60,381 bases of DNA from a virus (Duplodnaviria; Caudoviricetes): positions 1 to 60,381 of the IMG/VR virus record IMGVR_UViG_3300015256_000001; one strand, given 5' to 3'. Below the pieces are notes generated by a model. That model was not told the DNA's origin. It saw only the letters and a list, made by a program, of their open reading frames with translations, and did no database searches. Position 1 is the stretch's first letter. Each line of letters starts with the position of its first letter. Below are positions 5,199 through 54,961 of the stretch, piece by piece. The position numbers and the translations under genes were made by a program.

Positions 5199-5929
5199 GG
5201 CCGCCTGATCGAGTCCGAATAGGGGTCATACCACACGCCCATGACCCCGTCACGCCCGAGCGCACCGTCCGTCTCGAGCCGTGGCGGACCCTGATCCGTG
5301 AGTGCGGCGATGCTCGCCTCTGCCCGAATGAACGCCTGCTCCATCGCCCTAGTGACCGGCTTCCCGAACGCCTCCGCGATACGGATCTGGAGATCCGTTC
5401 GGAACAGTGCATGATACCCGTCAGGGTAGGTGTACTGCGTCGTCAGGTCGGCGAACCCTGAGATGGTCGGCAAGGCGAGGTAGAGCGTGGCGGCAGTCTG
5501 AGGCACCTCCCAGAAGTAGAGCGTGTTGTTCGTGACCCCAGTCTCCATGTAGACGTGGCAGGGATAATCCGCCTCTTCCGTCTTGTCGCCAATGTCGAAG
5601 TACTCGGCCTGAGTCAAGATGCCGATTGGCACCTCCTGCGTCTGATCGACTGGAAGCACGGCGGCATTCGCCAGGATGGTTGGCTTGGGCGTGACCGTGT
5701 AGTGGGCGCCAGTCGGGCCTATCGTGCGCGACACCTGGCCAGCCACGAGGGTGAAGGACTGGCGAGCGGCGGCGTAGATGCTCCGCCGCTTTTGCCTCCA
5801 CTCCTCGAACTGCTCTTCTAGAGCCACGAGCGCCATCGTCGCGTCCGGATCTGTCAGATGCCGGCCGACACCTATCACTCGGATGCCCTGAAGTGCCCGC
5901 GTGATGAGTTGTGCGGCCGTGAAGGTCAT
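5195..5929 (-). CDS. Head-to-tail adaptor (P22 gp4-like)
   Basis: T..QLITRAL..I.VIG N-terminus; YPDGY..L...L..RIAEAFG; synteny. Confidence 0.7.
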   Translation of the reverse strand: MTFTAAQLITRALQGIRVIGVGRHLTDPDATMALVALEEQFEEWRQKRRSIYAAARQSFTLVAGQVSRTIGPTGAHYTVTPKPTILANAAVLPVDQTQEVPIGILTQAEYFDIGDKTEEADYPCHVYMETGVTNNTLYFWEVPQTAATLYLALPTISGFADLTTQYTYPDGYHALFRTDLQIRIAEAFGKPVTRAMEQAFIRAEASIAALTDQGPPRLETDGALGRDGVMGVWYDPYSDSIRRP

Positions 5930-6336: not shown

Positions 6337-6782
6337 CAGTTGGTCACCGTGGGCTGTGGAGCCGGCACCCGAAGGAGCAGCATCCCGGTTGTGGCGTACT
6401 TGGAGTAGAACATCTCCATGTCAGACGGCCCTGACCATGACCCAAGACCGTCCCTGGCAGCGCCAGCGTTCGCCACCGCCTGGTCGAGTGGTAGGACATG
6501 GGTCAGCCACAGATGCGCGCCTGAGCGCGGCAGGACAAGGCAGAACATGTCCGGCGAGATCAGCCGGCCCTGCACGAGGCCGTAGAGCGCGTTGAAGATG
6601 CGCGTGGCCTTCACGCGGTGTGCTTCGACGGCCACGCGTTCTTGCCACATTCCACCTTCCGCCTTCTGCGCGCTCGCCAGCCAGCGCAGATGTTGCGCGG
6701 CCTCGTGATACCGCTCCATGAGGGTCAGCGCGAGGGAGGCTTCGACGCCGTTGGGTGGCCAGGGAGGCGACATCTCGTTCAT
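6336..6782 (-). CDS. Hypothetical protein
   Basis: 148 aa, overlapping start and stop with both neighbours. Confidence 0.6.
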   Translation of the reverse strand: MNEMSPPWPPNGVEASLALTLMERYHEAAQHLRWLASAQKAEGGMWQERVAVEAHRVKATRIFNALYGLVQGRLISPDMFCLVLPRSGAHLWLTHVLPLDQAVANAGAARDGLGSWSGPSDMEMFYSKYATTGMLLLRVPAPQPTVTN

Positions 6783-22946: not shown

Positions 22947-23174
22947 CTATGCTCCTCTCAGGATGGCCGGCGGACTTGGGACGTACCGCTCCACGCGGAC
23001 GAACTCCGTCAGCTCGAAGTTGTGCGGGGGGCACCACGCGTGAAACCCCAGGATCTTGATGTAGCCGTCCCTGGGGCGGACGGCCTTGACGGTATGCCAG
23101 CCCTGCCACCGACCACGGACGGAGCAATAGACGGCGTCCGGTGGAGCCAGAGTGCGCGCTTGCTTGGGTGTCAT
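22947..23174 (-). CDS. Small SH3-like beta hypothetical
   Basis: MTPKQARTL..GYIKILGFHAWCP; first gene of the leftward unit. Confidence 0.55.
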   Translation of the reverse strand: MTPKQARTLAPPDAVYCSVRGRWQGWHTVKAVRPRDGYIKILGFHAWCPPHNFELTEFVRVERYVPSPPAILRGA

Positions 23175-23182
23175 GCTTGTTC

Positions 23183-23202
23183 CCGTACCGGTACCGGTAC
23201 GG
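23183..23202. repeat. 20-bp perfect palindrome CCGTACCGGTACCGGTACGG (member of a dispersed family)
   Basis: Identical 20-mer at 28338-28357; 14-bp core also at 6121, 32756 and 53426. Confidence 0.95.
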
Positions 23203-23221
23203 CCTCCTCGCCGGCCACTAG

Positions 23222-23237
23222 AGCATGCCGCATGCCA
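23222..23237 (-). promoter_or_regulatory. Sigma54 (-24/-12) promoter, leftward
   Basis: TGGCATGCGGCATGCT = GG-N10-GC. Confidence 0.65.
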
Positions 23238-23384
23238 TCCGACAACACGCAAATTCAGGCCTGTTTTCAAGTGCCCAACTCGAGAAGTCTCCGCCTGGCG
23301 CGACTAAAGGGTGCGAAGGCTGACGACTAACGGATTTGTTGAAATGCCGATCTGCGTTTTTAGGCCTGATTTTGCGTTGTGTCG

Positions 23385-23400
23385 TGGCATGCCGCGTGCT
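23385..23400 (+). promoter_or_regulatory. Sigma54 (-24/-12) promoter, rightward
   Basis: TGGCATGCCGCGTGCT = GG-N10-GC; ATG at 23413. Confidence 0.65.
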
Positions 23401-23412
23401 CTGTGGTCTAGC

Positions 23413-24141
23413 ATGGCACCGACCGGAGCGGTTATCTACAAGGGTCCGTCGAGCTTCAACGGGGCGCCCATCGTCGCGATTGTAACCGGCCTGGGGAAAC
23501 CTTCGGCGAACCCCAAAACCGGCGAGATGCTGCAGTTGTGGATCATGCCGGCAGATCAGTCGCCACGCGAATCCGTCACTACTGGCGCGAATCGTGCCGT
23601 GTGCGGCGATTGCATCCACATACCGGTCGAGGTCGAGCGCGAGCACCGACACCGGGATGGATCGGTCGAACGCCACGCCGGCATCGACGGATCGTGCTAT
23701 GTCCACACTTGGCAGGGCCCGCTCGCAGTCTTTGACGCGTGGAAGGCCGGCCGTTACCTTGACTTGGCCCGCCGATACCGGAATGAACCAATGGCGCGGG
23801 TATACGGCCGGATCTCCAAGCTATTCGCTGGAACGTCGGTCAGGCTTGGCGCGCTTAATCGCCCAAACAGAAACGAGGACATCATGACCGCAATCAACGG
23901 CTGGACCTACCCGGTCCGCTCGCAGCTCTTCGCCCTAGGCGGGCAGTGGGACAAGCGCCGCAAGGTCTGGTTGGTGCCAGACGAGCACGCCGAAGCTGCT
24001 CGGGCCCTGGTGGCCGGCGCCCATGCACCACGGCGCCGATACGCCGGGTCATCGTACGCCCGCTTCGCTTCGGGCGCGGAGGTCTTCACCAATCGCCGTG
24101 GCCGGTGCGAGGATGCCCCGTGCTGCGGTTGCTGCTCATAG
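23413..24141 (+). CDS. Fusion ORF: truncated Cys-containing phage protein plus a downstream small gene (own start at 23884)
   Basis: IYKGPS..NPKTG..CGDC..SCYV..VRLGA, then GAGGAC-ATC-ATG at 23884 giving TYPVRSQL.ALGG.WD..CEDAPCCGCC. Confidence 0.7.
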   Translation: MAPTGAVIYKGPSSFNGAPIVAIVTGLGKPSANPKTGEMLQLWIMPADQSPRESVTTGANRAVCGDCIHIPVEVEREHRHRDGSVERHAGIDGSCYVHTWQGPLAVFDAWKAGRYLDLARRYRNEPMARVYGRISKLFAGTSVRLGALNRPNRNEDIMTAINGWTYPVRSQLFALGGQWDKRRKVWLVPDEHAEAARALVAGAHAPRRRYAGSSYARFASGAEVFTNRRGRCEDAPCCGCCS

Positions 24142-24228
24142 CCCCGTGCTTGACGTCTCCCCGTGGCCACGGTCGCGGGGAGGCAGGGAAGCATGAGGCT
24201 GACCAATCCAGAAGGAGACACACATCAC

Positions 24229-24525
24229 ATGACCGTCAAGATCACGTCCATGGACACACATCTCCCCCCCGGCAAGCTCGCGGACGCAGAGCTGCACTTC
24301 GACGATGGGCCACTCGCCGGCCTGAAGCTGATCGGATTCGCCGTGTGGGAGCGGCGGACTGGTGGCGGGCGCAACGTCACGTTTCCGGCCCGGCAGTACT
24401 CGATCAACGGAGAGCGGCGGTCCTTTGCGCTGCTCAGGCCGGCCGGCGATAGCCCCTACGCTAATGAGTCCATCCGGGATCTCATCCTGGCGGCCTACGC
24501 CGAGACCGAAGCGGTGACGGCATGA
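24229..24525 (+). CDS. SpoVG-like nucleic-acid-binding protein
   Basis: GKLADAELHF..GLKLIGFAVWE..NVTFPAR..IRDLILAAY; AAGGAG upstream. Confidence 0.65.
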   Translation: MTVKITSMDTHLPPGKLADAELHFDDGPLAGLKLIGFAVWERRTGGGRNVTFPARQYSINGERRSFALLRPAGDSPYANESIRDLILAAYAETEAVTA

Positions 24526-24716
24526 CCGTCGATGACATCCTCGACACTGGCGAGGTTCAACCTCGACTCCCGGTTGCGGGCGTGGTCCGCGAGCAGAACA
24601 TCACAGCGCCACGGCTTGACATCCCATTCAGCCTCACAGGTCAGGCCGTGCCTGACGCGAGAGGTAGACAAGTCGGCCTATTTGAACCTGAAAGGACTGG
24701 AGGCGAGCGAGTATGA
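24522..24716 (+). CDS. 64-aa mini-protein homologous to an internal segment of the 2124-aa ejected protein
   Basis: ATGA overlaps on both sides; 30/50 identical to the segment encoded at 52649-52798. Confidence 0.8.
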   Translation: MTVDDILDTGEVQPRLPVAGVVREQNITAPRLDIPFSLTGQAVPDARGRQVGLFEPERTGGERV

Positions 24717-25342
24717 CCTATAGAGAACGCCGAGAACGCCGCGCGGATCGCCTGCGAGGGTGGGCCGAGAAACGCGAAGCCAGATCGCGCAAGGCTTTCG
24801 ATGGAGCCCGCATCTTGGCGGACAGTATCCCATTCGGCCAGCCGATCCTGGTCGGCCACCACTCAGAACGCCACGCGCGCCGAGATCAGGATCGGATCCA
24901 TTCCGGCATGACGCGAGGGATCGAACATCAGGACAAGGCGCGCGAGATGTCCAGCAAGGCGGCCGAGATAGATCGGCAGGCCGAGGTGGCGATCTACAGC
25001 GACGATGTAGACGCGGTCGAACGACTGCGCGAGAAGATCGCCGGCCTCGAGGCCAAGCGCGCCCGGATTAAGGTCGTGAACGCGCTGGTTCGCAAGGTTG
25101 GACTCGCCGCGGCCGGCGACCAATTGACGGCCGAGGAACGCGCGGAGCTGCTCCAGCTCGTTCGCATCGTGCCGTACCACCACTGCGAGACTCGAGGCTT
25201 CCCGGCGTACGCGCTCACGAACCTTGGTGGCAACATCAGCCGCCTGAAAGCTCGACTGGTGGACCTGGAAACACGCGCCACCCTACGCGCCCGAGTGGAC
25301 GCCATGATCGCCAGCGAGAAGGCATACGAGGGGGCCGTATGA
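24713..25342 (+). CDS. DUF3560 domain protein
   Basis: IPFGQPILVGHHSERHARRD..IYSDD..LTNLGGNISRLKAR. Confidence 0.85.
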   Translation: MTYRERRERRADRLRGWAEKREARSRKAFDGARILADSIPFGQPILVGHHSERHARRDQDRIHSGMTRGIEHQDKAREMSSKAAEIDRQAEVAIYSDDVDAVERLREKIAGLEAKRARIKVVNALVRKVGLAAAGDQLTAEERAELLQLVRIVPYHHCETRGFPAYALTNLGGNISRLKARLVDLETRATLRARVDAMIASEKAYEGAV

Positions 25343-25839
25343 CCGTCCGAATGCCGACCCTACCGGAGTTCAAGAAGTTCGCGCGCGACGTCGCGCCGGC
25401 CGCCCAAGCGGTCCTGATGGCCAGGGCAAACGCACAGCTCACGCGTGAGCATGTAGACGCCTACATCGCGCCGATCTTCGCCTGCTACACGTTCCACGCC
25501 GAACCGGACTTCGGCGACGTCAGGCCGATCACATCACCGGATGATCTCTACCTCTGCGATCTCAATTCGCCCGAGGTGGCAGACTTCTACGCCCAGTGTG
25601 ACGCTGCACACCGGGCGCACGGCTTCACAGGCCCGCAGGGGCATTGCCCAGCCCTTGAGGCCGAGAACCTCGTCATCAAGGCCGAGAACGCCCTGATTGC
25701 CCTCGCTGAACCTCTGTTCGGCATTCAGGGTTACATGCTGGGAGGCGAGCGGAATCGGTACCTCGAGCTTCTCATCGGTGGAGCCTTGAAGGCTGCGCCA
25801 ACGACAGGGCGGGCCATGATGCGGGCGTCGAAGCGATAG
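25339..25839 (+). CDS. Hypothetical protein
   Basis: 166 aa, GHCPALEAEN; ATGA overlap. Confidence 0.7.
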   Translation: MTVRMPTLPEFKKFARDVAPAAQAVLMARANAQLTREHVDAYIAPIFACYTFHAEPDFGDVRPITSPDDLYLCDLNSPEVADFYAQCDAAHRAHGFTGPQGHCPALEAENLVIKAENALIALAEPLFGIQGYMLGGERNRYLELLIGGALKAAPTTGRAMMRASKR

Positions 25840-25907
25840 CCGACCCTTTTGGGTGTCCTGTGACTGGCCACGGTTCGCGGATCGTGGCCAGCGAGGAGGG
25901 CATGACC

Positions 25908-26207
25908 ATGGAGAGAGAGACAGGATACGTTGACCCGCCGATCTGCTGGGTGTGCGAGGCTGAGCCAGTGACAGATCGGGCGACAGGACTGGGCGATATG
26001 TGCCTGAACGAGGCCGGCTTGGGAGACGAGCCTGAGGAGTGGCAGCGGGAGCGTGAACGAGTGAGTGAGCTAGAGCGGCAGCGCGAACGCGATCGAGAGA
26101 ATGAGGAGCGCGATCAGTGGGAGCAGGAGCAGCTGAAGAAATGGGACCGGCGCGAGTGGGAGCCGGAGGGCGACGAGTGGAGCGGCGGATTCGCGGACAA
26201 TCACTGA
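25908..26207 (+). CDS. Acidic Zn-binding hypothetical
   Basis: CWVC; E/R-rich; ends WSGGFADNH. Confidence 0.6.
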   Translation: MERETGYVDPPICWVCEAEPVTDRATGLGDMCLNEAGLGDEPEEWQRERERVSELERQRERDRENEERDQWEQEQLKKWDRREWEPEGDEWSGGFADNH

Positions 26208-26222
26208 AGGAGGATGGAGAAC

Positions 26223-26366
26223 ATGACGATCGTACATCGCTATACGCAGGCCGTGCTGTGGACAGGCGAAGGGGCCGACCTGCGCGGGGCCGACCTGATC
26301 GGGGCCGACCTGCGCGGGGCCGCCGCCGAGTGGATTGCCGAATGGATGAAGGAGCAGACCAAATGA
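26223..26366 (+). CDS. Miniature pentapeptide-repeat protein (47 aa, not in track)
   Basis: MTIVHRYTQAVLWTGE-GADLR-GADLI-GADLR-GAAA..; GGAG upstream; ATGA overlap downstream. Confidence 0.7.
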   Translation: MTIVHRYTQAVLWTGEGADLRGADLIGADLRGAAAEWIAEWMKEQTK

Positions 26367-26575
26367 CCAAGCAGAAGCTATCGTCGGTCATCTTGGAGAC
26401 GCGCTCGACTGGTATCAACTTCGCGACTTCTGGCGTGGTGCGCCGAGCGACAGACCGGCGCGTCATCCATGTGACTATCCCATACCCTTACGGATTCAGC
26501 GCCGCCGCACTCACCGCAGCCGAAGCATGGGCCAAGGCCAACGGGTACGGCATCCTGACAGGAGAATCACAGTGA
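26363..26575 (+). CDS. Hypothetical protein
   Basis: MTKQKLSSVIL..; AAGGAG upstream. Confidence 0.6.
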   Translation: MTKQKLSSVILETRSTGINFATSGVVRRATDRRVIHVTIPYPYGFSAAALTAAEAWAKANGYGILTGESQ

Positions 26576-26805
26576 TAACGAAGATCAACGGCAAGGACGT
26601 GGCGCGATTCGAGGCCGACATGGACCAGATCGCGCGAAACTTCGCCGCCGAGGCTCGCGCCATCCTCGCCGGCACTTCACGTCTGTTGCCGTGTCTAGGC
26701 CACCTGGCAGCCCTTCAGCGGATCATCGCCGCTCAGGATGCCACGATTGCCCAACTGCAGATGATGCTCAAGAGTGAATATCAACCGAAAATTCGGCCAC
26801 AGTGA
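26572..26805 (+). CDS. Hypothetical protein
   Basis: GTG start after AGGAG; GTGA overlap. Confidence 0.55.
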   Translation: MITKINGKDVARFEADMDQIARNFAAEARAILAGTSRLLPCLGHLAALQRIIAAQDATIAQLQMMLKSEYQPKIRPQ

Positions 26806-26864
26806 CCCGAATATGACGTCACAACCGCCACAACTGCAGATGAGCCGAACAGTGACCGTCACAG

Positions 26865-26896
26865 ATCGGGCTGAGGGACACCAACCTCAGCCCGAT
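26865..26896. terminator. Hairpin at convergent gene junction
   Basis: 12-bp stem ATCGGGCTGAGG/CCTCAGCCCGAT. Confidence 0.65.
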
Positions 26897-26917
26897 TCCT
26901 TCCTACCGATTCCTTCC

Positions 26918-27610
26918 TTACCGCATCGTCCTGTGTAGGCGCCGCGCGCCAAGCGCCAAACCCAGACCTACCATCGCGAGTGTTGCCGGCTCAGGCACCT
27001 CGCGGGTATCCCGCTCCAAGTAGGAGCCCGAATACAACACGCCAAACGGATTGCTACCCGTATCGGCTCCGCCGCCCACCTGATACGCCACCATGCGAAT
27101 AGTGTCGGTCCCACCCGTGGCCAGCGCGTTGAGGTCCCAGTACTCGCCGGGTTCGCAGCCAATGGCGACCGCCGAGCAGATGTCTTGGCTGAACGATGCC
27201 GCCTGGAACAACGTGCCGTTGAAAAATACGTCGAGTGTATCGTCAGCCCAAAAGCGAACAGTCACCGCGCTCCCGGCCGCACCGACGAACGATTCAACAA
27301 TCTCCATGATCGGCGTCTGCCCGGTGGGATTCCCGGCCGATCCGTTCTGCGGCGCAAGCACGCTGCCCAGGTATCCCGTGTCCATGTACGACACCCACTG
27401 AGCATCCGTCAACGCGTCGTCCATCCACAGCGGGTGGCGGTCGATGACAACGGTTGTCCCGGCGCAGCTTCCCGCCTGCGCGCACACCGCCGCAAACGTG
27501 CTGGTCCAGTTCTCGCCATTGCCGGACACAATCGGCGCGGCCTGTGCCGTCACCGAAACGAAACCCACGAAAGCCGCCACGACGGCGGCGCGGAACGATT
27601 GATACTTCAT
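26918..27610 (-). CDS. PEP-CTERM sorting domain surface protein
   Basis: Signal peptide MKYQSFRAAVVAAFVGFVSVTAQA; ADD..NG and NPFG motifs; C-terminal VPEPATLAMVGLGLALGARR. Confidence 0.9.
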   Translation of the reverse strand: MKYQSFRAAVVAAFVGFVSVTAQAAPIVSGNGENWTSTFAAVCAQAGSCAGTTVVIDRHPLWMDDALTDAQWVSYMDTGYLGSVLAPQNGSAGNPTGQTPIMEIVESFVGAAGSAVTVRFWADDTLDVFFNGTLFQAASFSQDICSAVAIGCEPGEYWDLNALATGGTDTIRMVAYQVGGGADTGSNPFGVLYSGSYLERDTREVPEPATLAMVGLGLALGARRLHRTMR

Positions 27611-27680
27611 TGCCTTTTCCTCCCGATTCACTTTGCCCGTTTATTCGGGCCGTTCATCACCTCGACTCTCCCGCGCTCCC

Positions 27681-37867: not shown

Positions 37868-37907
37868 CGCTCATCGCCGGCAGGGGTCACGCCCCACTCG
37901 GCTGTCT

Positions 37908-37948
37908 CACGCGAGAGATTACCGAACCATGTTACGGCTTGTCAAGTC
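37908..37948 (-). promoter_or_regulatory. Sigma70-like promoter
   Basis: GACTTGACAAGCCG..N18 spacer..TAATCT-CTCGCGTG. Confidence 0.75.
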
Positions 37949-43644: not shown

Positions 43645-43653
43645 GTTGCCTCC

Positions 43654-43694
43654 CACGCGAGAGGCTACAGGAAGTCGATTCGGCTTGTCAAGTC
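43654..43694 (-). promoter_or_regulatory. Sigma70-like promoter
   Basis: GACTTGACAAGCCG..N18 spacer..TAGCCT-CTCGCGTG. Confidence 0.75.
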
Positions 43695-43700
43695 ACCTGG

Positions 43701-45917
43701 TTAGGGGACCGGCTTCTTGAAGATCACGGTATCGTCTTCGGGATTCGCAGGCAAGACGTAGTCCTTGAGCATGACCCAGTTGCGGAAGTAGCTATAGAGG
43801 TTCCCGTTATTGATGTACGCCCCACCAGTGAAGTCAGATGACATCTCCACCGCAGAACTCACGTTAGTAATAGGCGTAACCAAAGTCAGGTCCGTACCAA
43901 CGGACGCATTGCCAATCGGGCCACCCCAGGTAGACTCTATGGCTGTCGCCTGTGCCACAGCCACGCCGCCAGAGATCGCTACCTGCCCTTGCGTGGTGTA
44001 TCGCACTCCGTCTCCTCTGTCCATCTGCGTGTTGTTAGGAATAATCTTCCCTTCCTCGGTGCCGGTAAAAGTTACGGTCCCTGTTGCCGCATAGTGATTC
44101 GCAGAGGTATCCATCTCGTAATCGAAAATGCCGATCTCGTCGCGGATATTCATACCATTCAGCCGACCCCAGGGTGTCTTGTAATAGATCCGAGTTGGTT
44201 CGCGAGTTTCGTCTGCAATCCACAACGAGATCATGTGATACGTTCCAGGAGCCACAGTTTCCCCTGTGAACGTATTCCAGCTCGTGAACGCCGTCTCGTC
44301 TACGTTCAACTGGACTTCCATCCAATACCGTGTCCATGTGCTGTGCTTCACTGGGAACGTAAGATAGTCCTCTGCTCCTTGTCCAGTCGGTTGAAGATTT
44401 GTGAGGTCCGAATCCATGCCAGCCGGTGCTGGCCCAATGTAGGACCGCATGCTCACGACTATAACATCTGAACACGATCCAGATGCGGGCCCCCCACCTG
44501 TGATGTACTGCTCTTTCACCTCAACTGTGATACCCCCGTCACCAGTGTTTGCGCCAGCGTTGAGAAACCGAAGCCGATATTGCTTGTGAACGAGTTGGGG
44601 CGAGATATTGAGCAAACCGCCGGTACATGATACGTGTCGCCATTCTGGACCGTGCCAGACATCCCACACGAACAAAACGACACCAGTGTCTTCATGCACT
44701 GGCATGTGCATATGCGATCCCAGTACTTGGGCTGTCTGCGTGAGTGATATTCGAGCCGGAACCCATGTGAGCTTTGCCGCGTCTTGCGGATTCTCATAGG
44801 TATCGGTGCCGAACTCGTACGTAAACGCGTTCCCGTTACCAACGTCTACGGCCTCTATATCCGGTTGCGTCCTCAACGAGTGATGATCTTCTGCTGCAAC
44901 CTCTGGGAGATCGATCAGTGTCTCAAAGAAATCGTGTGGCCCCTCCGCGCTGCCAGACGCGAAGGTCAAGTTGAACGGCTGTGTGTCGGACGTCATCGCA
45001 GAATCAGTCACCCTGGCGACAAACGAGCACACCCCGGCTCCCACCCCACTGGTCCACGACACCAGCCCACCGGCTGAAATGGACGTCGCGGCGCACTGAG
45101 CATCCGCGTCGTTCAACGTAGTCCCAGCTCCGTCATTCGTCCACACGTTCGACCCAGCCCCACCAGTGGCACTTAACTGCCGCTCGTCTGCTACGCCCTC
45201 TGTGCCGTTAGTAAGGCTGGTCTGATCGATGAGGAGCGGCGGCAACAGCGTCACGGTGATCTCGGCCGTTCCCGCATTCGCGGCCTGATCAACGGCAGTA
45301 ATCGTGAGGATATTCTCGCCCACCGTTAACGGAATCAATGCGCTCCATGCCGGTGTGCCACCCGTCGCATTCCCGCTCCCGCCAGTCGAATTAACCCAAG
45401 ACACACCCGTCACACCCACATTGTCTGTGGACGTGCCTTCGATGGGATACGGAGACACTGAAACAGTATCCGTGGGATCTGTTGTCGGTTCCAAAATCTC
45501 GACGATAGGATCGGTCATATCGTCTTCGGTGTAGGTAATTTCAATGGCGTCCGTGATCGGCGTGTCCATCGCCGCATCATGCGGTGTTACCGTCACGACA
45601 TTCTCACCGACTGCGAGCGTCACGCTGAAGGACCAGTTAGCGGTCCCATCAGCTGTGCCACTCGTCACGCTGCATTCAGGACACGCCCAGGTCACGGACG
45701 TGCAGGCGGTATTGTCCACACACGTCCCTTCAATGACCACAACCTCTGTCGAGACACCTATCGTCGGGCTTGTCGTCGGCACCGTGATGAACGCCAGTGG
45801 AGACGTCGGGCCTTCCTCCAACGGGAGCCGCGCAAACCTGGGACGAAGCAAATCCTGAGCGAACGTAGACCCGCTCAACCCGACAAGCATCAAGAGCCAC
45901 ATCCAACGCATATTCAT
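43701..45917 (-). CDS. Exported multi-Ig-domain protein with a lectin-like C-terminal region and a baseplate-J-like insert
   Basis: Signal peptide MNMRWMWLLMLVGLSGSTFA; two G...DN..V.W..GEN repeats; ATGTVTFTG..FTGG insert. Confidence 0.7.
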   Translation of the reverse strand: MNMRWMWLLMLVGLSGSTFAQDLLRPRFARLPLEEGPTSPLAFITVPTTSPTIGVSTEVVVIEGTCVDNTACTSVTWACPECSVTSGTADGTANWSFSVTLAVGENVVTVTPHDAAMDTPITDAIEITYTEDDMTDPIVEILEPTTDPTDTVSVSPYPIEGTSTDNVGVTGVSWVNSTGGSGNATGGTPAWSALIPLTVGENILTITAVDQAANAGTAEITVTLLPPLLIDQTSLTNGTEGVADERQLSATGGAGSNVWTNDGAGTTLNDADAQCAATSISAGGLVSWTSGVGAGVCSFVARVTDSAMTSDTQPFNLTFASGSAEGPHDFFETLIDLPEVAAEDHHSLRTQPDIEAVDVGNGNAFTYEFGTDTYENPQDAAKLTWVPARISLTQTAQVLGSHMHMPVHEDTGVVLFVWDVWHGPEWRHVSCTGGLLNISPQLVHKQYRLRFLNAGANTGDGGITVEVKEQYITGGGPASGSCSDVIVVSMRSYIGPAPAGMDSDLTNLQPTGQGAEDYLTFPVKHSTWTRYWMEVQLNVDETAFTSWNTFTGETVAPGTYHMISLWIADETREPTRIYYKTPWGRLNGMNIRDEIGIFDYEMDTSANHYAATGTVTFTGTEEGKIIPNNTQMDRGDGVRYTTQGQVAISGGVAVAQATAIESTWGGPIGNASVGTDLTLVTPITNVSSAVEMSSDFTGGAYINNGNLYSYFRNWVMLKDYVLPANPEDDTVIFKKPVP

Positions 45918-46678
45918 CGTCCCCTCGCCATCAGTGTGGACAGCGACGGCGCACGCCCGCCTGCCGCTGGTGCAATAAATGAGGCCGCGCAGTTCGCCAC
46001 AGTCCGCCCGGTTGCCGATGACCATGTGATGGTATCTGCGGACAATGCGGTGGCCCCGCTGTAGTACTGCGACACGGTATCCCCCACCGAGAAATCTCCA
46101 GCTAATGTGATGAAGTCTGGAGTCGTCGTCGTCGTTGGTGTGAATGTGCCCAACGCGCTGTTTCCAACCATGATCGTGTAGACGAAGACATCCGATGCCG
46201 TGGTCATCGACACCGCAGCCGCGTGAGTCGTGTTGTTTCCAGATTCAGCCACAGAGTCCGTCTGGTTTAGCGGTGCGGTCAAATGTGCCCCCAGCACCTC
46301 CACCCACTGGGCGCGTGATGCGCCGTTGCCGTTCGACACGGTGACCGTAATCGTGAGCGCACCGGCTGTGGTAACTATATTGGGTGCGTAGAAAATCTGG
46401 CAATGGCGCGATGGCGTTGCGCCAGACGTATTCGCGCTCAGTACCGCCGATGACCATGTGTTCACCCCGTCTGAGAGGCTATAGGCCTGATCGGCGTCAC
46501 CGCCTGGCTGTCCAATGCCGACGACGAGCGTGCTGCCGTCCGTCAACATCGTAGGCGAAATATCGTACGTCGTCGTTCCGTTGACTGCGGCATGCTGCCC
46601 CAATGTTGGCGCCGCTGCCTGCAACACCACACTCCACGAGAGCAGGGCTACTCCTACTGTAATATAGAGTCTACGCAT
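45914..46678 (-). CDS. Exported beta-rich (fibre/adhesin-like) protein
   Basis: Signal peptide MRRLYITVGVALLSWSVVLQA; T/S/G-rich. Confidence 0.7.
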   Translation of the reverse strand: MRRLYITVGVALLSWSVVLQAAAPTLGQHAAVNGTTTYDISPTMLTDGSTLVVGIGQPGGDADQAYSLSDGVNTWSSAVLSANTSGATPSRHCQIFYAPNIVTTAGALTITVTVSNGNGASRAQWVEVLGAHLTAPLNQTDSVAESGNNTTHAAAVSMTTASDVFVYTIMVGNSALGTFTPTTTTTPDFITLAGDFSVGDTVSQYYSGATALSADTITWSSATGRTVANCAASFIAPAAGGRAPSLSTLMARGR

Positions 46679-48586: not shown

Positions 48587-51500
48587 TCAGTCCGTTTCCG
48601 GCTGAGGTGACGGTAATGGGCGCCGGCCTAGCGCCACCCTCGAGACGTCGATCATCTGGTTGCGGATGTTCCTAATCGCCGCCTGCTTCGCCTCTGGTTT
48701 CATCACGGCCGCCGGCAACGCCTGGAGAGACTTGATCCGCTTGCCAAGCACGCCAACGCGGTCCACCGCCAGCCGGATGTAGCGGGCGCGCTCCAGTGGG
48801 AGATCCGTCTCGGCTACCTGCTTGTCGGCAGCCTCATTGTTCCCCCTGGCCCGCTTCGACCGCACGGACGCCGTCAGTGTCTCGTAGGCCCTGGCGAGGT
48901 CGTAGAGGTCGCCGACGCTCTGCCCTGAGCCCATCATCTCGCCCGTGTCGTAGACCGTCCCGACCACCGGCAGATCGCGCATGGGGTCGAAGGACTTTGG
49001 CGTCTCGCCCTTCGCGAGGCCCACGACTGCATCTACGGCCTTGGCTGACGTGCGCCCCACTGACGTGGTCCAGCCGAACAGGATGTGGTCGATCTGGGCC
49101 GGGCTGAAGATTGGCAGGATCTTCTGAATGGTCTTCGCCGTCTCGGTCGTCCACTGCGAGTACTGGTCCTCGAGCGGTAGCCCTTGCACTTCCCATGGAC
49201 TCACAATCGGTGCATCGCGAAAGGCGGAGTAGTTCGCGAATGCCTCCAGGACCGGCATGATGGCTGTCGGCATCATGTTCAGCACGGTGCGCTTCGCGAA
49301 GTCTGGATCGTCGAAACCAGGGAACCAGTCCTCCTGCATCTGCTTGAACCGCTGCGGGTCGCCCTTCTTCATGTAGTCGAGCCCGGCCTCCATGATGTCG
49401 CCAGCGTAGGCGTAGTCGAACGGCTTGGCGATCTTGGCGTACCCTTCCGTCCCTGGCAGCTTGATGAACCAGTAGGCGTGCTTCTCCCACTCCGGCTTTT
49501 CCTCGTACTCCTTGTCGTCGCCTCGAAGGAACCAGAGAGCAGCCGAGAAGAACGCGATCGTGCCCAGCTTCAACAGCGTTCCCTCTGGGTCACGCTTGAA
49601 CGTCTCGCCCATTCGGACCCAGGACTGCACCTTCGCGTTGAGGAAGGCCTTGAACTGGCTGAACTCCTTCACGATGGTGCCGCCACGCTGGTAGTCCGTC
49701 GAGACGTCACGGGCAGCGAGGGCCGCCCTGGCGAGTATCGAATCGGATGTGCCAGCGTAGTCCTTGTCGCCCTCGAGTAGGCGCCGCATGACGCCACGCT
49801 CTTTGCCGCCAGCCTCCAGAGCCAACTTGAACTCGGCAAACCGTGTCGCCGACTCGACGGCCTGAGAGGCGTGCTGGAGCGCACTCCACGCGACCTTCAT
49901 CAGCTCCAGTGGATTCAGCACCGTCTGCGCCACTGATAACCTTTGGCCACTCAGTTGCCTCACGGCATCCTGCCGGTGACGCCGGTCACTCCCCACGAGC
50001 GCCGCCTGGGACACGCCAGACACGGCGAACAACTTGGCGGCTTCAGAACCTCGCGTCAACTCGATCATCGCAAGCACCTGATCGTAGACAGGAATCAGGC
50101 CGTACTTGGACTGGAGCCATGACACCAGGCTGTCTCGCGTGAAGTTCCTAATGATGAAGCTGGGCGTCGTCGTCGCCGTCGTCCTGAGCACGCTCGCGAC
50201 TCCAGCAAACCCAAGGCGGATGACACCGGCAGCATCACGCGGCCCCATCTGGGTGATCGCCTCGTACAGCCCCGTGTGGTTGACCTGCCAGAACTCCCGC
50301 TTGCCGTTGCGGATGAGCGTCACGATCTGCTCGCCGTTCGGCGCCACGTATGTCGCTGGCGTAAAGACCGTCACGAGCTGCTCAAATGCCTCGCTCAGGT
50401 TGTCGGGCAGATCCTCCATGCCGGCATCCTCGAGCGCCTTTTGGATCTCCTTCGTGAGCCGCGACAACTCGAACGTCGTCGGGATCTTATCCGGCGCCAC
50501 GCGGTCCATCCACTTGCCAGACGAGTGCTTCTTGTCGGTCGCCTTCTCGGCTGCTTCGGCGAGTGCCACCATGGCCCGGTTCTTCTCGACCATGTCCACG
50601 ATTGCGAAGGTGTTTCCTATGATGGACTCCAGTGGCGGTATCACCGTGAGCCCTGATCCGGTGGCCCGCTTGACTGGCACAGTGCGATTCGCCAACCTCC
50701 GAGCGACACCACTGAAGATACCCTCAGTCGCCTCCTGGACCCGCATAAGCGGGACGTATGACTCGTAGGCCAACGTGATCGCCTTGAACTGATCTGTCGA
50801 AAAGGCCCCTCGCGACCTCGCGTATTCGAGTAGCGCACTCTGGTACGCGTAGACCTTCTTGGCGGCTTCCTCGAACTTCGCGAAGTCTGGCCTGGCCCGC
50901 GCCTGGGCGATCATGTCGTCGGCCTGAGCCTTCGTCACGCCTGGGTTCTTCCCAACCTTCAGACGCTCCATCGCATGCACGGCGTAGAGGTAGTGCTCGA
51001 ACTCGGCGAGATGCTCCTTTACGCCTTCCAGGGCATCCGCAAGGCCGTCACTCAACTTCACCGCATCGGGGCCATAGACACCAGTCGTCAGGAACCCTTC
51101 AGCCTGTGAGGCCGATCCTTGGGCGAGGCGCGCGAGCACATACCCATCCGCCGCGTAGTCTCTCGGTTGGCCGCTACTCATGTCATCCATGGCAACGTCA
51201 ACCCAGGTGAACCGATCTATGGTCCTCGCAACCACATCGTGGATAGTAGCCTTCGGGTTCTCGGCCACCGCTCGCGCGAGGGACACGATCTGGTTGTCCC
51301 TAGACCGGTCCATCTTGAGCCGCAACTGGTCAGCCGGCGTCAGCGCCAGATACCCCATGAGCTGCGTCCTGACCCCATGGACCGCGTCACGCAACTTCGG
51401 CTGCTGCTCAAGCCTCCGCTCGAACTCGGCGAAGTACTTGGGCGCCTCATACTCGGCCGCTTCTGGGTCAGACGCATAGAGCACGAAGAACTCTGCCGCG

Positions 51501-54500
51501 CCCTCTTTCCTGACCGTGGGCGGATCATAGCCTGGCATGGACGTGCGCTGCCCAAGTGTCTCTAGCTCACCCTTCCACCGCTTGTCGTGCCTCTTGATCC
51601 TCAAGACGGCAATATCGAAGTCGTGGCCCGCCTCGTGGACGGCGGCCCGGAGATCCTCCGCCACCTTGAGGCGGATCATGCGCGCCCTGTTCTTGTAGAT
51701 TCCGCGCGCCCCACGCATCCCTATGCGGCCGGCTCGAATGGGGACGCGTTCGAGTGCAGCCGTGAGGCTCTTGATGATGGCGGACGGGCTCATCGACGCA
51801 TCGCGTTGTGGCGTTGGCCCTCGCGGCTTGGTGAACGCCGGGACGCCCTGATCGTACTCGCCAGGCATCCGCGACACGTCATCGTCCTCGAACTCGTCCG
51901 GGTCGAACGACGCGTCACCGTCAGCTTCTTCTTCTGAATCTGACTCCACGCCAGATCGCCACGAATCGCGCCACCATGGCGTCCCCGGCTTCATATCGGC
52001 GCGCTTGGCCAACTCACTCGTGCCTGGGTGGGTGACCCCCTTGACACCAACATCGCCAAGGCGGGCAATGTCGTCGAGTGCCGCGAGAAGATCATCCTGC
52101 GTCTCGATGTGACTGAAACGCGGATCCTGCTGGAGGCTCGTCACGATGTCGTCCACGCTGAACCCGGCTTGACGTTTCCCGCTCACCTTGTCGTTCTTCT
52201 TCGTCCGGAACACATTCGGCACGCCACCAAAATTGCCGTATGGCCCGGCCCATTCCCGGAGACGACGCAGTTCTCCAGCCAGCCCACCTCCGCCTTCGGC
52301 CTGAACGCTGATGCCGCCGGCAGCCACGATGGCCTCGAGCAATTCGCGTGGGTTGTATCCGGACTCAGCTACCTCGGCGTCGAGCGATTCGATGAAGTCC
52401 ACGCGAGCCTCGAACTCGGCCCGCACCGCTTCGACGTCTACGTCTGGGTCAACTCGGACGGCGTCGGCGACGATGGCGGCGTAGACGTCTGAGTAGTGGT
52501 CGTCGCGTCTGGCTTTGGCGGCTTTGGCCGACTCGACTCGGCCTGGCGGAGCACTCGCCGCAACGCGACGGACGGGTATACTCCCGTCTTCACGAGGCGT
52601 CTCACTTCTTGCTGGTTGGCTTGGCTCAACATTGGGTGCGTCTCCTCCAAATAATCCGCCCTGGCTACCCTTCGTCGCCGTCGAGGCCTCACTGGATAGG
52701 CTGAACGGCACATCTAGTTGCGGTGTCGGGATGTTCTGCTCACGCACGTTTTCAGCGCCAGCTAGACGCGGCTGCAACTCGCCCGTGTCGAGCACGTCAA
52801 CGACAGGCGCGGAGACTGGCGGCTCAACGGCCGGCGCGGACACGGCCTCTGCTTCAGCCGGCGGCTTGGCTATCTTCCCAGCCGCCGTGACCGCCTCACC
52901 GTACCGATCAATCGCCTTCCCGTAGTCGTCGAACTTGACGAGGCTCACGAGGTTGCCTGAGTCTTCGTCCATCACGCGTATGAAGCCGGCGCGGCCAGAT
53001 TGATACAACTCGTACGACACGCCGTCGATGGATCGGTTTGCCTTCCTGGCCACAGGGCTGCCCATAAGGCTAGAGGCAATCTTCACAGGCGCAGGAGCGT
53101 CTACGGCTGGCGCTGGTTCTATTGGCGCCGCTACCGGCTCAGTGACCGGCGCTGCCGGTGGAGCCGGCGCGAACATCGCATTCGCATCGGCCACCATCGC
53201 CATTGGGTCGCCGTCAGCCACCGACTTGAACCATGCCTTGGACTTGTCGCCATACCGATACCCGGCCCGTTCCATCAACCGGCGCGTGGCGAGATCCGGC
53301 TTCTGATCCTCTGGGAAGGCAATCTCGACCGTCTTCCGCTCTGGGTTGTAGCGCGCAACTGGCCCGGTCGCGATTGGCGCCGCCGGCTCGCTTTGAGGCG
53401 CAGTAGGAGACTCCGGCGCGGGCTGTACCGGTACCGGTATGGGTGCCGTGACTGGGGCCGTGACGGGTGGCTCAACCGCTGGAGGCGCGACAGGCGGTTC
53501 AACCACAGGAGCCGGTGTCGGAGGCTCCCTAACAGGAGTAGGCACTACCGGTGCCGGCGCAGGTTGAATCGGTGGAGCCACCGGAGGCGCGACAGGCTGA
53601 GGCTCAGTCGGCGCGATGGGTGGCGCGACCGGCGTCGGTGCAACCGGCGGAACTACCGTCGCCGCTGGAGGCTGTGCCGGCGTGGCTACTGGAGCCGTCA
53701 GCGCGCTCTTGATCTGCGCTCCGCTGCCCATGACCGCACCGGCAAGCGTGCCCATCACGAGTGCTTGGTCTACGCCGGTTTCCCATGGACGCCCGGCAGC
53801 CTTGTTCTCGAGGATCGTCTCCTGAACCGATTGCGGCAGTTCTTCGAGTACCGCTTCCTGGACGGTGCCGGCCACAACCGCCTTCGTGAGCGACTTACGC
53901 GCGGCTGGGTCCTTGATCGCCGCCGCGAGCATCGTGTCCACATCCACGATCCCCCACGACTTCGCCAGCTTGGCCCCGAGCGCGCCAATGACGCTCGTCC
54001 CAGCACCAGCCGCTACAGATAGAGCCGACTGTGCCGGCGTAAGCGTGCCGTCTGGCGCAGCCTGCCTCAACGAGGACGCCATCTGCCCGGCGGTCACGGC
54101 GCCTTCGCCAGCCGCCGCACTCGCGACGAGTGGTAGCCCAGCCTTAATGAGTCCGCGCGCCACGCCGGCTCCACCCACCATGGATGGCGCTGACTCCACC
54201 ACGTTATGCACGATGGTCGAAGGGTTCTTGATCGCCGCGATGGCCGTCTCGAGGATGCCATCAGCTTCTTCGACTGACCGGTTGGCCTGCTTCTGCTGGT
54301 CGCTGTACCAGCTACTCAGGATCTCCTTCGCGAGGGCTGGTTGGAATCCGACTGATTCGAGCGCCTTGCCGACTCTCCCTCCGGTGGGGATGTCGGCGAG
54401 ACCCACCACGGCCTCTGGGATACCAATCGCGCCCTTGACGGCAGAGATGCCTAGATCCGCGACACGCTCAAGGAATGTTGCCGGCTTAGCCTGTGGCGGC

Positions 54501-54961
54501 TCAACATACCGCCCGCCGTGCTTCAGCATCAAGGCCTCGAACGGATCTTCGGAGGCAGGCTCAGGCTTCGCGGCAAGTTGTGCGGCCGACTTCTCGTCCC
54601 ACCCAAGCGTCACCAGTTCGGCCGCGTCCTTCGCTCTCGGCGTCCCAGGCACACGCTCGCCGGTCTGCACATGAAACCCGCCAACTACGATCTGCGGATG
54701 CCCAGGCTTCTTGAAGTCAGATGGCCAATGGCCCGTGGCATCAGGAGCCGCACCAGCCTTGAATGCCGCACGGTAGTCGTACTGCTGCTGAGGGCTGTCC
54801 GGATCTGCGTCGAGCCCGTAGCGTTTCGCGGCATCTGAGTACCACGCCCGGAATGCGATCTCGTCTGGCTGCGGCCGCGTGGGCGGAGGAGGCGCCGGCT
54901 CGACATACCGGCCCCCATGCTTGAGCATGAGAGCTTCAAACGGATCGACTTGTGACGGCAT
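48587..54961 (-). CDS. Giant ejected polyvalent protein (LPD38-like C-terminus, zincin HExxH domain)
   Basis: 2124 aa; AAVHEAGH..EGAAEF; YEEKPEWEKHAYW..IAKPF; Pro-rich linkers; follows the ejection genes. Confidence 0.8.
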   Translation of the reverse strand: MPSQVDPFEALMLKHGGRYVEPAPPPPTRPQPDEIAFRAWYSDAAKRYGLDADPDSPQQQYDYRAAFKAGAAPDATGHWPSDFKKPGHPQIVVGGFHVQTGERVPGTPRAKDAAELVTLGWDEKSAAQLAAKPEPASEDPFEALMLKHGGRYVEPPQAKPATFLERVADLGISAVKGAIGIPEAVVGLADIPTGGRVGKALESVGFQPALAKEILSSWYSDQQKQANRSVEEADGILETAIAAIKNPSTIVHNVVESAPSMVGGAGVARGLIKAGLPLVASAAAGEGAVTAGQMASSLRQAAPDGTLTPAQSALSVAAGAGTSVIGALGAKLAKSWGIVDVDTMLAAAIKDPAARKSLTKAVVAGTVQEAVLEELPQSVQETILENKAAGRPWETGVDQALVMGTLAGAVMGSGAQIKSALTAPVATPAQPPAATVVPPVAPTPVAPPIAPTEPQPVAPPVAPPIQPAPAPVVPTPVREPPTPAPVVEPPVAPPAVEPPVTAPVTAPIPVPVQPAPESPTAPQSEPAAPIATGPVARYNPERKTVEIAFPEDQKPDLATRRLMERAGYRYGDKSKAWFKSVADGDPMAMVADANAMFAPAPPAAPVTEPVAAPIEPAPAVDAPAPVKIASSLMGSPVARKANRSIDGVSYELYQSGRAGFIRVMDEDSGNLVSLVKFDDYGKAIDRYGEAVTAAGKIAKPPAEAEAVSAPAVEPPVSAPVVDVLDTGELQPRLAGAENVREQNIPTPQLDVPFSLSSEASTATKGSQGGLFGGDAPNVEPSQPARSETPREDGSIPVRRVAASAPPGRVESAKAAKARRDDHYSDVYAAIVADAVRVDPDVDVEAVRAEFEARVDFIESLDAEVAESGYNPRELLEAIVAAGGISVQAEGGGGLAGELRRLREWAGPYGNFGGVPNVFRTKKNDKVSGKRQAGFSVDDIVTSLQQDPRFSHIETQDDLLAALDDIARLGDVGVKGVTHPGTSELAKRADMKPGTPWWRDSWRSGVESDSEEEADGDASFDPDEFEDDDVSRMPGEYDQGVPAFTKPRGPTPQRDASMSPSAIIKSLTAALERVPIRAGRIGMRGARGIYKNRARMIRLKVAEDLRAAVHEAGHDFDIAVLRIKRHDKRWKGELETLGQRTSMPGYDPPTVRKEGAAEFFVLYASDPEAAEYEAPKYFAEFERRLEQQPKLRDAVHGVRTQLMGYLALTPADQLRLKMDRSRDNQIVSLARAVAENPKATIHDVVARTIDRFTWVDVAMDDMSSGQPRDYAADGYVLARLAQGSASQAEGFLTTGVYGPDAVKLSDGLADALEGVKEHLAEFEHYLYAVHAMERLKVGKNPGVTKAQADDMIAQARARPDFAKFEEAAKKVYAYQSALLEYARSRGAFSTDQFKAITLAYESYVPLMRVQEATEGIFSGVARRLANRTVPVKRATGSGLTVIPPLESIIGNTFAIVDMVEKNRAMVALAEAAEKATDKKHSSGKWMDRVAPDKIPTTFELSRLTKEIQKALEDAGMEDLPDNLSEAFEQLVTVFTPATYVAPNGEQIVTLIRNGKREFWQVNHTGLYEAITQMGPRDAAGVIRLGFAGVASVLRTTATTTPSFIIRNFTRDSLVSWLQSKYGLIPVYDQVLAMIELTRGSEAAKLFAVSGVSQAALVGSDRRHRQDAVRQLSGQRLSVAQTVLNPLELMKVAWSALQHASQAVESATRFAEFKLALEAGGKERGVMRRLLEGDKDYAGTSDSILARAALAARDVSTDYQRGGTIVKEFSQFKAFLNAKVQSWVRMGETFKRDPEGTLLKLGTIAFFSAALWFLRGDDKEYEEKPEWEKHAYWFIKLPGTEGYAKIAKPFDYAYAGDIMEAGLDYMKKGDPQRFKQMQEDWFPGFDDPDFAKRTVLNMMPTAIMPVLEAFANYSAFRDAPIVSPWEVQGLPLEDQYSQWTTETAKTIQKILPIFSPAQIDHILFGWTTSVGRTSAKAVDAVVGLAKGETPKSFDPMRDLPVVGTVYDTGEMMGSGQSVGDLYDLARAYETLTASVRSKRARGNNEAADKQVAETDLPLERARYIRLAVDRVGVLGKRIKSLQALPAAVMKPEAKQAAIRNIRNQMIDVSRVALGRRPLPSPQPETD

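Follow-up and report, generated by a model that had tools for sequence, protein, structure and literature searches.

A putative small gene of a phage for a free copy of a peptide module found in polyvalent proteins

A tailed-phage genome (Duplodnaviria; Caudoviricetes; IMG/VR virus record IMGVR_UViG_3300015256_000001) was analyzed over its full length of 60,381 bp, here called the window; the record is complete, with 123 nucleotides (nt) identical at both ends. Here, we report a 64-amino-acid (aa) gene, the mini gene (24522..24716, + strand), an open reading frame (ORF) with its own start and stop, and its relation to a 2124-aa polyvalent protein, the giant (48587..54961, − strand; recognized from its ORF, Pfam LPD38, and PHROG matches). 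Both carry a module of ~50 aa. In the mini protein, the module core comprises residues 5 to 54 (24534..24683, +) and runs from a hairpin-like D.LDTGE.QPRL through PF.LT to QVGLF. In the giant, the embedded copy is a 50-aa segment at residues 722 to 771 (52649..52798, −), read from the frame. An initial annotation of the window had placed both copies, and its coordinates and sequences agreed with the frames as read again.

Similarity of the two copies

The mini protein aligned with residues 720 to 771 of the giant without gaps (31/52 identical; BLASTP E value, 2e-17), which bears out the earlier description of the mini protein as a separate version of part of the giant. Its second-best local match to the giant had an E value of 0.56, and no giant-like sequence was found at an E value of ≤0.05 among the 11 other ORFs compared from the surrounding gene island and its flanks.

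Within the 50-codon core, 14 codons were identical, 16 were synonymous but different, and 20 were nonsynonymous; the 52 nucleotide differences were distributed over the three codon positions as 14, 8, and 30. The rates of nonsynonymous (dN) and synonymous (dS) substitution were 0.27 and 1.95 (saturated), respectively, giving a dN/dS ratio of 0.14 (Nei-Gojobori). Neutral drift of the mini gene would have left a pairwise ratio far above this value. Because of these codon changes and this ratio, the similarity is one maintained at the protein level, far beyond chance. The initial annotation had claimed as much, and 16 of the 30 identical residues do use different codons; the ratio near 1 that it had named as telling against its interpretation is far from the one computed.

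The module family

A phmmer search of 1.84 billion cluster representatives with the mini protein gave 85 matches (E value, ≤1e-3), of which 82 were real; the other 3 were discarded as spurious tandem-repeat proteins. Among the 82 is the giant of the window itself, with its start placed at Met-12. The other 81 carriers comprise 75 proteins of 764 to 4131 aa and 6 below 300 aa. Most giants carry one module, and two per protein occurred in 2 of the 82 carriers.

The aligned phmmer segments gave the consensus D.LDTGE.QPRLPGAG.VR(D/E)Q.V.TPEFEAPF(S/A)LT.E....KGKQTTLFQ, or, in compact form, D.LDTGE.QPRLPGAG.VR..(~8)..P..(E/D).PF(S/A)LT..(~8)..(Q)..LF. In a 40-row alignment, 10 columns were invariant and 7 more were conserved at ≥90%. 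The invariant residues (D5, L7, G10, E11, Q13, P14, R15, L16, F36, and L38 in mini numbering) are all present in both copies in the window; outside the module, the carriers share 20 to 50% identity.

Structure prediction gave little fold to this conserved sequence. AlphaFold2, run on the mini protein with the 40 rows, returned a predicted template modeling score (pTM) of 0.23, with a two-residue bridge and one 6-residue helix. The module folded alone reached a confidence of 66 to 78; within a model of a homologue of the giant (locus L009), its predicted local distance difference test score (pLDDT) was 54 to 84, and just a hairpin of 3 + 3 residues formed. As modeled, the module is a conserved unstructured peptide and not a fold, in keeping with the linear peptide proposed in the initial annotation.

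Database searches with the mini protein or the module found no Pfam family (E value, ≤10), no PHROG (E value, ≤0.01), and no NCBIfam entry (E value, ≤1). The best hit of a profile search of the PDB with the module was a plant-virus capsid protein over 26 residues (E value, 0.019). A search of the ESM Atlas gave a top score of 0.75, under any useful level, and a word-index protein search with the mini protein in the "near" and "longer" length classes gave nothing; that index requires shared 5-mers. Judged by these searches, the module family is previously undescribed in Pfam, PHROGs, NCBIfam, and the PDB.

The mini gene

The mini gene is bounded by ATGA overlaps on both sides: its ATG is shared with the stop of the upstream gene (24163-24525), and its stop is shared with the ATG of the downstream gene (24713-25342). 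Its product keeps 10/10 invariant and 7/7 near-invariant family residues and scored 88.9 bits against a family hidden Markov model (HMM), next to 88.0 bits for the giant's copy, with both copies included in the HMM alignment. As read from the sequence, the 64-aa ORF is a real gene. Contigs from four other freshwater-sediment runs matched positions 23300-26400 only over short stretches, all without differences from the window and including one at 24617-24784, and showed no variants within the mini gene.

The mini ORF could instead be a dead recombination fragment of the giant gene, without expression or function. Such a fragment would be consistent with the GC content at third codon positions (GC3), which is 0.57 in the mini frame versus 0.79 and 0.76 in the two adjacent genes and 0.73 to 0.88 for the genes of the genome; two frames overlapping the mini gene have GC3 values of 0.75 to 0.76. 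It would also be consistent with the absence of the exact 64-aa sequence from a collection of 15 billion proteins, from which it appears that gene callers never called this ORF. The mini protein further sits on a long branch (1.45 versus a median of 0.54) of the module tree, which is poorly resolved (89 rows; 54/86 forks open), and such a copy was seen in no other phage sampled. Against a dead fragment stand the dN/dS ratio of 0.14 at saturated dS, the retention of every invariant and near-invariant residue, and an intact ORF with exact ATGA overlaps inside an operon, and we regard it as very improbable.

The window holds a second small copy of part of a larger protein. The 72-aa ORF at 1583-1801 (−) resembles a free copy of the C-terminal ~65 residues of the adjoining 721-aa protein (1805-3970, −), and the two stretches form a 197-nt direct repeat at 72% identity (1583-1801, −, and 1821-2017, within 1805-3970, −). 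The C-terminal region of the 721-aa protein matched the PHROG "head closure Hc3" at residues 648 to 719.

Occurrence of free copies

Elsewhere, the module was found almost entirely within long frames. All 38 module loci on viral contigs lie in open frames of 526 to 4038 aa, and all 36 on metagenome contigs lie in open frames of at least 425 aa; many of the metagenome loci are the same phages as in the viral set, and many frames are cut by the 3-kb flank. Species-representative genomes held seven loci, five of them in frames of at least 1783 aa. A sixth, coding for a 177-aa protein (P0005, locus L090), was rejected as a pure mini protein, since a partial copy of a domain described below (domain X) follows the module; the seventh has just the first 15 module residues. 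A tblastn search of 50,697 phage records with the mini protein gave zero matches.

A giant paired with a free mini protein was found in no other genome sampled. The dual arrangement is so far peculiar to this phage and is not a conserved strategy; the idea in the initial annotation of a peptide "delivered twice" is unsupported as a general one. Five phages of 60 to 64 kb that share the 120-aa gene upstream of the mini gene had no module (0/5), an empty answer that tells little.

Looser parallels occurred. Two module copies on one phage contig (L021 and L036) lie in frames of 1589 and 727 aa, and the 727-aa frame joins a DUF3560-like stretch and the module. Among 48 loci fetched by the two genes neighboring the mini gene, 2 have small ORFs with a degenerate module; the clearer of them (L086, ORF 3419-3922) has the degenerate module at its end (...QSSLF-stop) and is followed directly by a homologue of the 120-aa gene. 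P0028 (57 aa) and P0070 (71 aa), small carriers on contigs of 1.0 to 1.36 kb, are candidates for additional free copies but may be incomplete genes. On contig L028, the same module-coding stretch appears twice, 2.7 kb apart (3626-3760, +, and 6493-6627, −), as an inverted duplication or an assembly artifact.

The giant and other carriers

The giant matched Pfam LPD38 at residues 1816 to 1987 (E value, 2e-31; 110 bits versus a cutoff of 27), a family that Iyer et al. 2017 regard as phage specific (PMC5512222, main text). It also matched PHROGs of phage proteins of 1636 to 3431 aa, and its N-terminal part resembles the N termini of families of 2900 to 3431 aa. Homology separates at least five regions (N-terminal residues 155 to 420, the module, domain X, residues 1043 to 1540 with an HEAGH motif, and LPD38), to none of which an enzymatic family was assigned. 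Close relatives of the whole giant were not found among viral contigs.

The giant gene (−) is flanked on one side by a gene that weakly matched a "DNA ejection" PHROG (57925-58890; E value, 1.7e-5) and on the other by a Baseplate_J-like gene (43701-46025). Through the 123-nt terminal repeat, it is contiguous with genes for a terminase, a P22-like portal, a scaffold-like protein, and a P22-like coat. Polyvalent proteins are described in the same main text as multieffector proteins inferred to be packed in the capsid and to enter the cell with the DNA (PMC5512222). The giant is plausibly virion delivered and ejected as well, because of its LPD38 domain, the likeness of its N terminus to those phage protein families, and its late-operon position beside the weak "DNA ejection" match.

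Pfam searches of 26 other carriers matched LPD22, ART-PolyVal, LPD38, Zeta_toxin, 2H phosphoesterase, RadC, PBECR5, GGDEF, and GNAT. By this domain content, the carriers are the polyvalent proteins that Iyer et al. 2017 set out (PMC5512222, main text). The module is, from the searches, widespread in such proteins, a distribution that the initial annotation had overlooked and that reframes its observation.

Other short motifs were seen in the giant and its relatives. The giant starts with a 17-residue motif, DPFEALMLKHGGRYVEP (residues 6 to 22; 54896-54946), repeated exactly at residues 138 to 154 (54500-54550); a string similar to DPFEALMLKHGGRYVEP follows the module in carrier P0029. The 17-residue motif is possibly a further short element that moves among these proteins. 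An acidic motif, (S/T)F.P.E(F/L), here DASFDPDEFEDDD (residues ~1016 to 1028; window 51878-51916), sits in many carriers between the module and whichever of two neighboring domains (X or Y, below) is present. Its loose pattern occurs within 120 residues upstream of the module in 27/82 carriers and appears to be a second linear motif of the giants.

The HEAGH motif, of the HExxH type, lies at residues ~1108 to 1112 (window ~51626-51640) and suggests a metallopeptidase-like region; Pfam gave no match to this region. The motif bears on another explanation, in which the module is a recognition site, either for proteolytic processing of the giant (e.g., by its own HExxH) or as a signal for capsid targeting or packaging. 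The mini protein would then be a competing substrate or a decoy that tunes processing or copy number. The prevailing single module per giant would suit such a site, as would the position of HEAGH, ~340 residues downstream of the module. In four other carriers (P0004, P0014, P0026, and P0037), a region homologous to that around HEAGH starts 14 to 52 residues past the module. Metallopeptidase domains have moreover been proposed, in the main text of Iyer et al., to autoprocess polyvalent proteins (PMC5512222). However, no Pfam metallopeptidase family was found at an E value of ≤0.01 in the giant or in the 26 other carriers scanned, and a 50-residue block with 10 invariant positions exceeds the usual needs of a cleavage site. 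Portals are also diverse: a detectable relative of this phage's portal was present in just 1 of 5 module-bearing phage records, which speaks against a structural receptor. P22-like heads are, further, not known to have a capsid-targeting peptide. A recognition site is, in our view, highly unlikely.

Domains X and Y

Iterated searches over the carriers defined two domains that neighbor the module. Domain X is helical and in the giant directly follows the module (residues ~780 to 1035; 51857..52624, −). Among the 82 carriers, 39 have X, 33 have Y, none have both, and 10 have neither; 6 of these 10 are 893 to 3463 aa long. No relationship between X and Y was detectable (hhalign probability, 3.4%), and neither has a Pfam match. 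The module is no more than 150 residues away from X in 32/38 cases and from Y in 24/33.

X precedes the module in 33 carriers and follows it in 5, including the giant. In P0014 (locus L009), the giant's closest homologue, the protein is collinear with the giant except that the module lies on the opposite side of X. The module thus moves as a unit, its order relative to X being permuted among carriers. The giant's module copy is set inside a protein of more than 700 aa, with X starting ~27 residues later; the mini protein has neither feature, which sets it apart within the family.

X was modeled with AlphaFold2 on the L009 homologue (55% identical to the window's X), from a collinear alignment with L009 as its first row; the model was helical with a pLDDT above 90. 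Foldseek searches of the model of X, linker, and module found nothing in the PDB at an E value of ≤0.001, and the best VIA-align match had a Z score of 5.5 over 59 residues, which is noise level for helical models. Between X and the module, the L009 model has a small three-stranded beta unit (~5700-5810; model residues 310 to 344), for which the top weak fold matches, chromo-barrel and Pur-alpha-like domains, were not significant (E value, ≥0.24). In another carrier (L026, 5042-5736), X is split over two reading frames by a frameshift or a sequencing error.

The steady company of X or Y raises the possibility that the module is their ligand, a tethered peptide that docks within or between giants. 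The free mini protein might in that case bind the giant's X in trans as a cap, a regulator, or a copackaged passenger. That X or Y occurs in 72/82 carriers, never together, and usually close to the module would fit, and a permuted order is typical of paired units. P0027, P0048, and the L013 and L039 frames start or end near the module, which would be in line with a docking tag. The weak points are that X and Y are unrelated yet their modules are indistinguishable, and one invariant peptide for two domains is unlikely; that six carriers of 893 to 3463 aa have neither domain; and, as a minor point, that, in the models, module confidence beside X was no higher than that of the module alone. We consider a ligand of X or Y unlikely.

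Module similarity was 0.543 between X- and Y-carriers and 0.542 within the groups, and shuffling of the X and Y labels gave a difference at least as large in 267/500 trials. The module sequence is independent of which neighbor domain is present. A peptide shaped by two unrelated neighbors should differ between them, so its partner is probably neither X nor Y.

The module tail

The initial annotation had observed that both copies end in Q..LF and had likened this end to a beta-clamp-binding motif; both do end so, as QVGLF in the mini protein and QGGLF in the giant. The canonical beta-clamp-binding motif is given in the parts of the literature consulted as Q-aliphatic-x-[L/M]-[F/L], with position 2 tolerating substitution (PMC11139829). 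Q at position 1, [L/M] at position 4, and [F/L] at position 5 are present in both copies, and QVGLF fits the pattern in full. Across the family, Q..[LIM]F was found at a fixed place in 43/85 segments, versus 0.9 on average and never more than 4 in composition-preserving shuffles; because this count is so far above the shuffles, the tail of the module is a real conserved feature.

The giant and the mini protein might accordingly dock on the host's sliding clamp, which would block or recruit the replisome or let the proteins ride on DNA. Known clamp motifs often lie in disordered stretches, as Q..LF does here, and several are C-terminal (PMC11139829, as far as consulted), like the exact QSSLF end of the small L086 protein; clamp-using phage proteins have been published, e.g., MuC of phage Mu. 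Conservation, however, is strongest in the N-terminal D.LDTGE.QPRLP and in PF.LT, and the tail is the least conserved part. The strict motif is missing from 42/85 segments, many of which keep LF only and some of which have the tail replaced altogether. Position 2 is mostly T, D, A, or G across the family; an aliphatic residue there is absent from the commonest form, QTTLF (18/43 strict-motif segments), and from the giant's QGGLF. The motif is also short, so a match is weak evidence. A cofold of the mini protein with the Escherichia coli beta clamp (DPO3B_ECOLI, as a host stand-in), run without controls, gave a score of 0.15 against a mark of 0.32, which counts neither for nor against clamp binding. 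Clamp docking is a special case of binding to a host partner, and an unlikely one.

A second part of the module recalls another replication protein. The C-terminal tip of SSB is an acidic run ending in I/L-P-F and needs a free C-terminal carboxylate. The middle of the module, (F/L)(E/D)(A/I/V/L)PF (LDIPF in the mini protein), bears some resemblance to this tip, which offers a lead; the difference is that the module's PF is internal and followed by an invariant.L(T). Taken with the tail, this suggests a more speculative and distinctly unlikely possibility, in which the module would be a universal hub-hijacking peptide, an invariant and disordered cassette that plugs injected effectors into a replisome or repair hub of the host across several bacterial phyla. 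It would combine three submotifs: the hairpin DTGE-QPRLP, the (E/D).PF that resembles the SSB tip, and the Q..LF that resembles the clamp motif. The free copy would on this doubtful scheme have evolved in this phage to compete at a set time, freeing the injected giant or taking its place as soon as genes begin to be expressed.

Proposed function

The explanation that we tentatively prefer, at somewhat less than even confidence, treats the module as a linear peptide that docks on a single, highly conserved third party, most likely a protein of the host, and that is available both tethered and free. The tethered form would be the one inside the giant, and a small accessory operon would yield the free one, which would either raise the occupancy of the partner or displace the giant from it by competition. 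Binding, the host origin of the partner, ejection of the giant, and the timing of the mini gene are steps that we infer.

Since the module is unstructured and has 10 invariant residues in carriers that otherwise share 20 to 50% identity, it is probably a binding site for something very conserved. The portal diversity described above argues against a lineage-specific virion receptor as that partner. Module loci were found on contigs assigned to Acidobacteriota, among them one of 1.13 Mb and one of 176 kb, and also in metagenome-assembled genomes (MAGs) of Alphaproteobacteria, Actinobacteria, Chloroflexota, and Gemmatimonadota. We also count the small L086 protein with its degenerate module and the L036 frame in favor of a docking peptide.

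Several points weigh against it. X or Y shares a chain with the module in 70/76 carriers of at least 764 aa, usually within 150 aa, which could mean a joint function. The host assignments come mostly from MAG bins, in which the smaller contigs may be misbinned phage. The mini gene itself contributes its low GC3, its absence from the protein collection, and its long branch in a poorly resolved tree; the pairing with a giant in this genome alone and the lack of a module in the five phages sharing the upstream gene count on the same side.

Genomic context

The mini gene belongs to a + strand gene island (23311..26366) delimited by an ORF and GC3 map. The island, ~3 kb long, is flanked by replication genes and late genes, all on the − strand, and has domain matches to DUF5710 (weak), DUF3560, and a pentapeptide repeat. 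The upstream gene (24163..24525, +) is translationally coupled to the mini gene through the ATGA overlap; its 120-aa product has 47 relatives in viral contigs (58 to 76% identity) and zero matches in Pfam, PHROGs, or NCBIfam, and it has, by eye, a likeness to SpoVG-type proteins. The downstream gene (24713..25342, +) encodes a 209-aa DUF3560 protein (Pfam E value, 1.3e-34).

In a blastn search of positions 23000-27000 against phage records, the sole match was a 52-nt pentapeptide-repeat stretch. It lies within a 50-aa ORF (26214-26366, +) that matched the pentapeptide repeat, and these 52 nt share 86 to 89% identity with genes for pentapeptide repeats in P22-like Salmonella phages and, in the same identity range, with a Cutibacterium phage gene annotated "anti-restriction protein."

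No sigma-70-like promoter site was found by the + strand island. The window has a 44-nt repeat at 37905-37948 and 43651-43694 (− strand; 2 mismatches; 0/100 shuffles matched), which reads on the − strand as GACTTGACAAGCC...TCTCGCGTG.GA and includes TTGACA; both copies closely precede a block of − strand genes and are likely phage promoters or operators. This promoter-like repeat has these two copies in the genome and none near the island. Early timing of the mini gene, as had been assumed in the initial annotation, is unsupported by these searches. A 237-aa protein (26918-27631, −) has a C-terminal PEP-CTERM motif (E value, 6e-6), which hints at a Gram-negative host with an exosortase.

Relation to known systems

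Solo versions of polyvalent-protein modules are already a known theme. According to the main text of Iyer et al., several polyvalent-protein domains also occur solo, and small ORFs for them can cluster near the large one (PMC5512222). The likeness is that a unit of the giant is also a separate small gene in a mobile element; here, however, the unit is a ~50-residue unstructured peptide rather than a folded or enzymatic domain, and the mini and giant genes share one genome, 24 kb apart. The strings "linker," "disordered," "short motif," and "clamp" are absent from that main text, although its supplementary domain lists may name the module. Neither that main text nor string searches of the literature turned up such an unstructured module, a near-obligatory pairing with one of two alternative domains, or a free copy in the genome of a giant. 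To the extent of these sources, the peptide case is a new variation on that theme.

We count phage T4 as a precedent for an injected form plus an expressed paralogue. T4 Alt is injected, and its paralogues ModA and ModB are expressed after infection (PMC5512222, main text), so that one activity comes from a virion-packaged protein and from paralogues made in the cell. Those proteins are ADP-ribosyltransferases with known targets, whereas here we have a peptide recognized by its sequence. The clamp motif is similar, in the portion of that literature consulted, in being a short linear motif in a disordered stretch with an LF end and often an initial Q (PMC11139829); it differs in that 43/85 module segments have the Q and strong conservation lies elsewhere in the module.

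Polyvalent proteins presumably act in the cell before any other phage protein. A peptide with 10 invariant residues, found in most giants of this kind sampled, is a candidate device for aiming or docking their effector domains, and the natural 64-residue free version offers an experimental handle that spares work with a 2124-residue protein. Should a conserved hub of the host be the partner, the peptide would be a lead for a broad-range inhibitor; if it is X or Y, the module would show how cargo is attached to ejected proteins.

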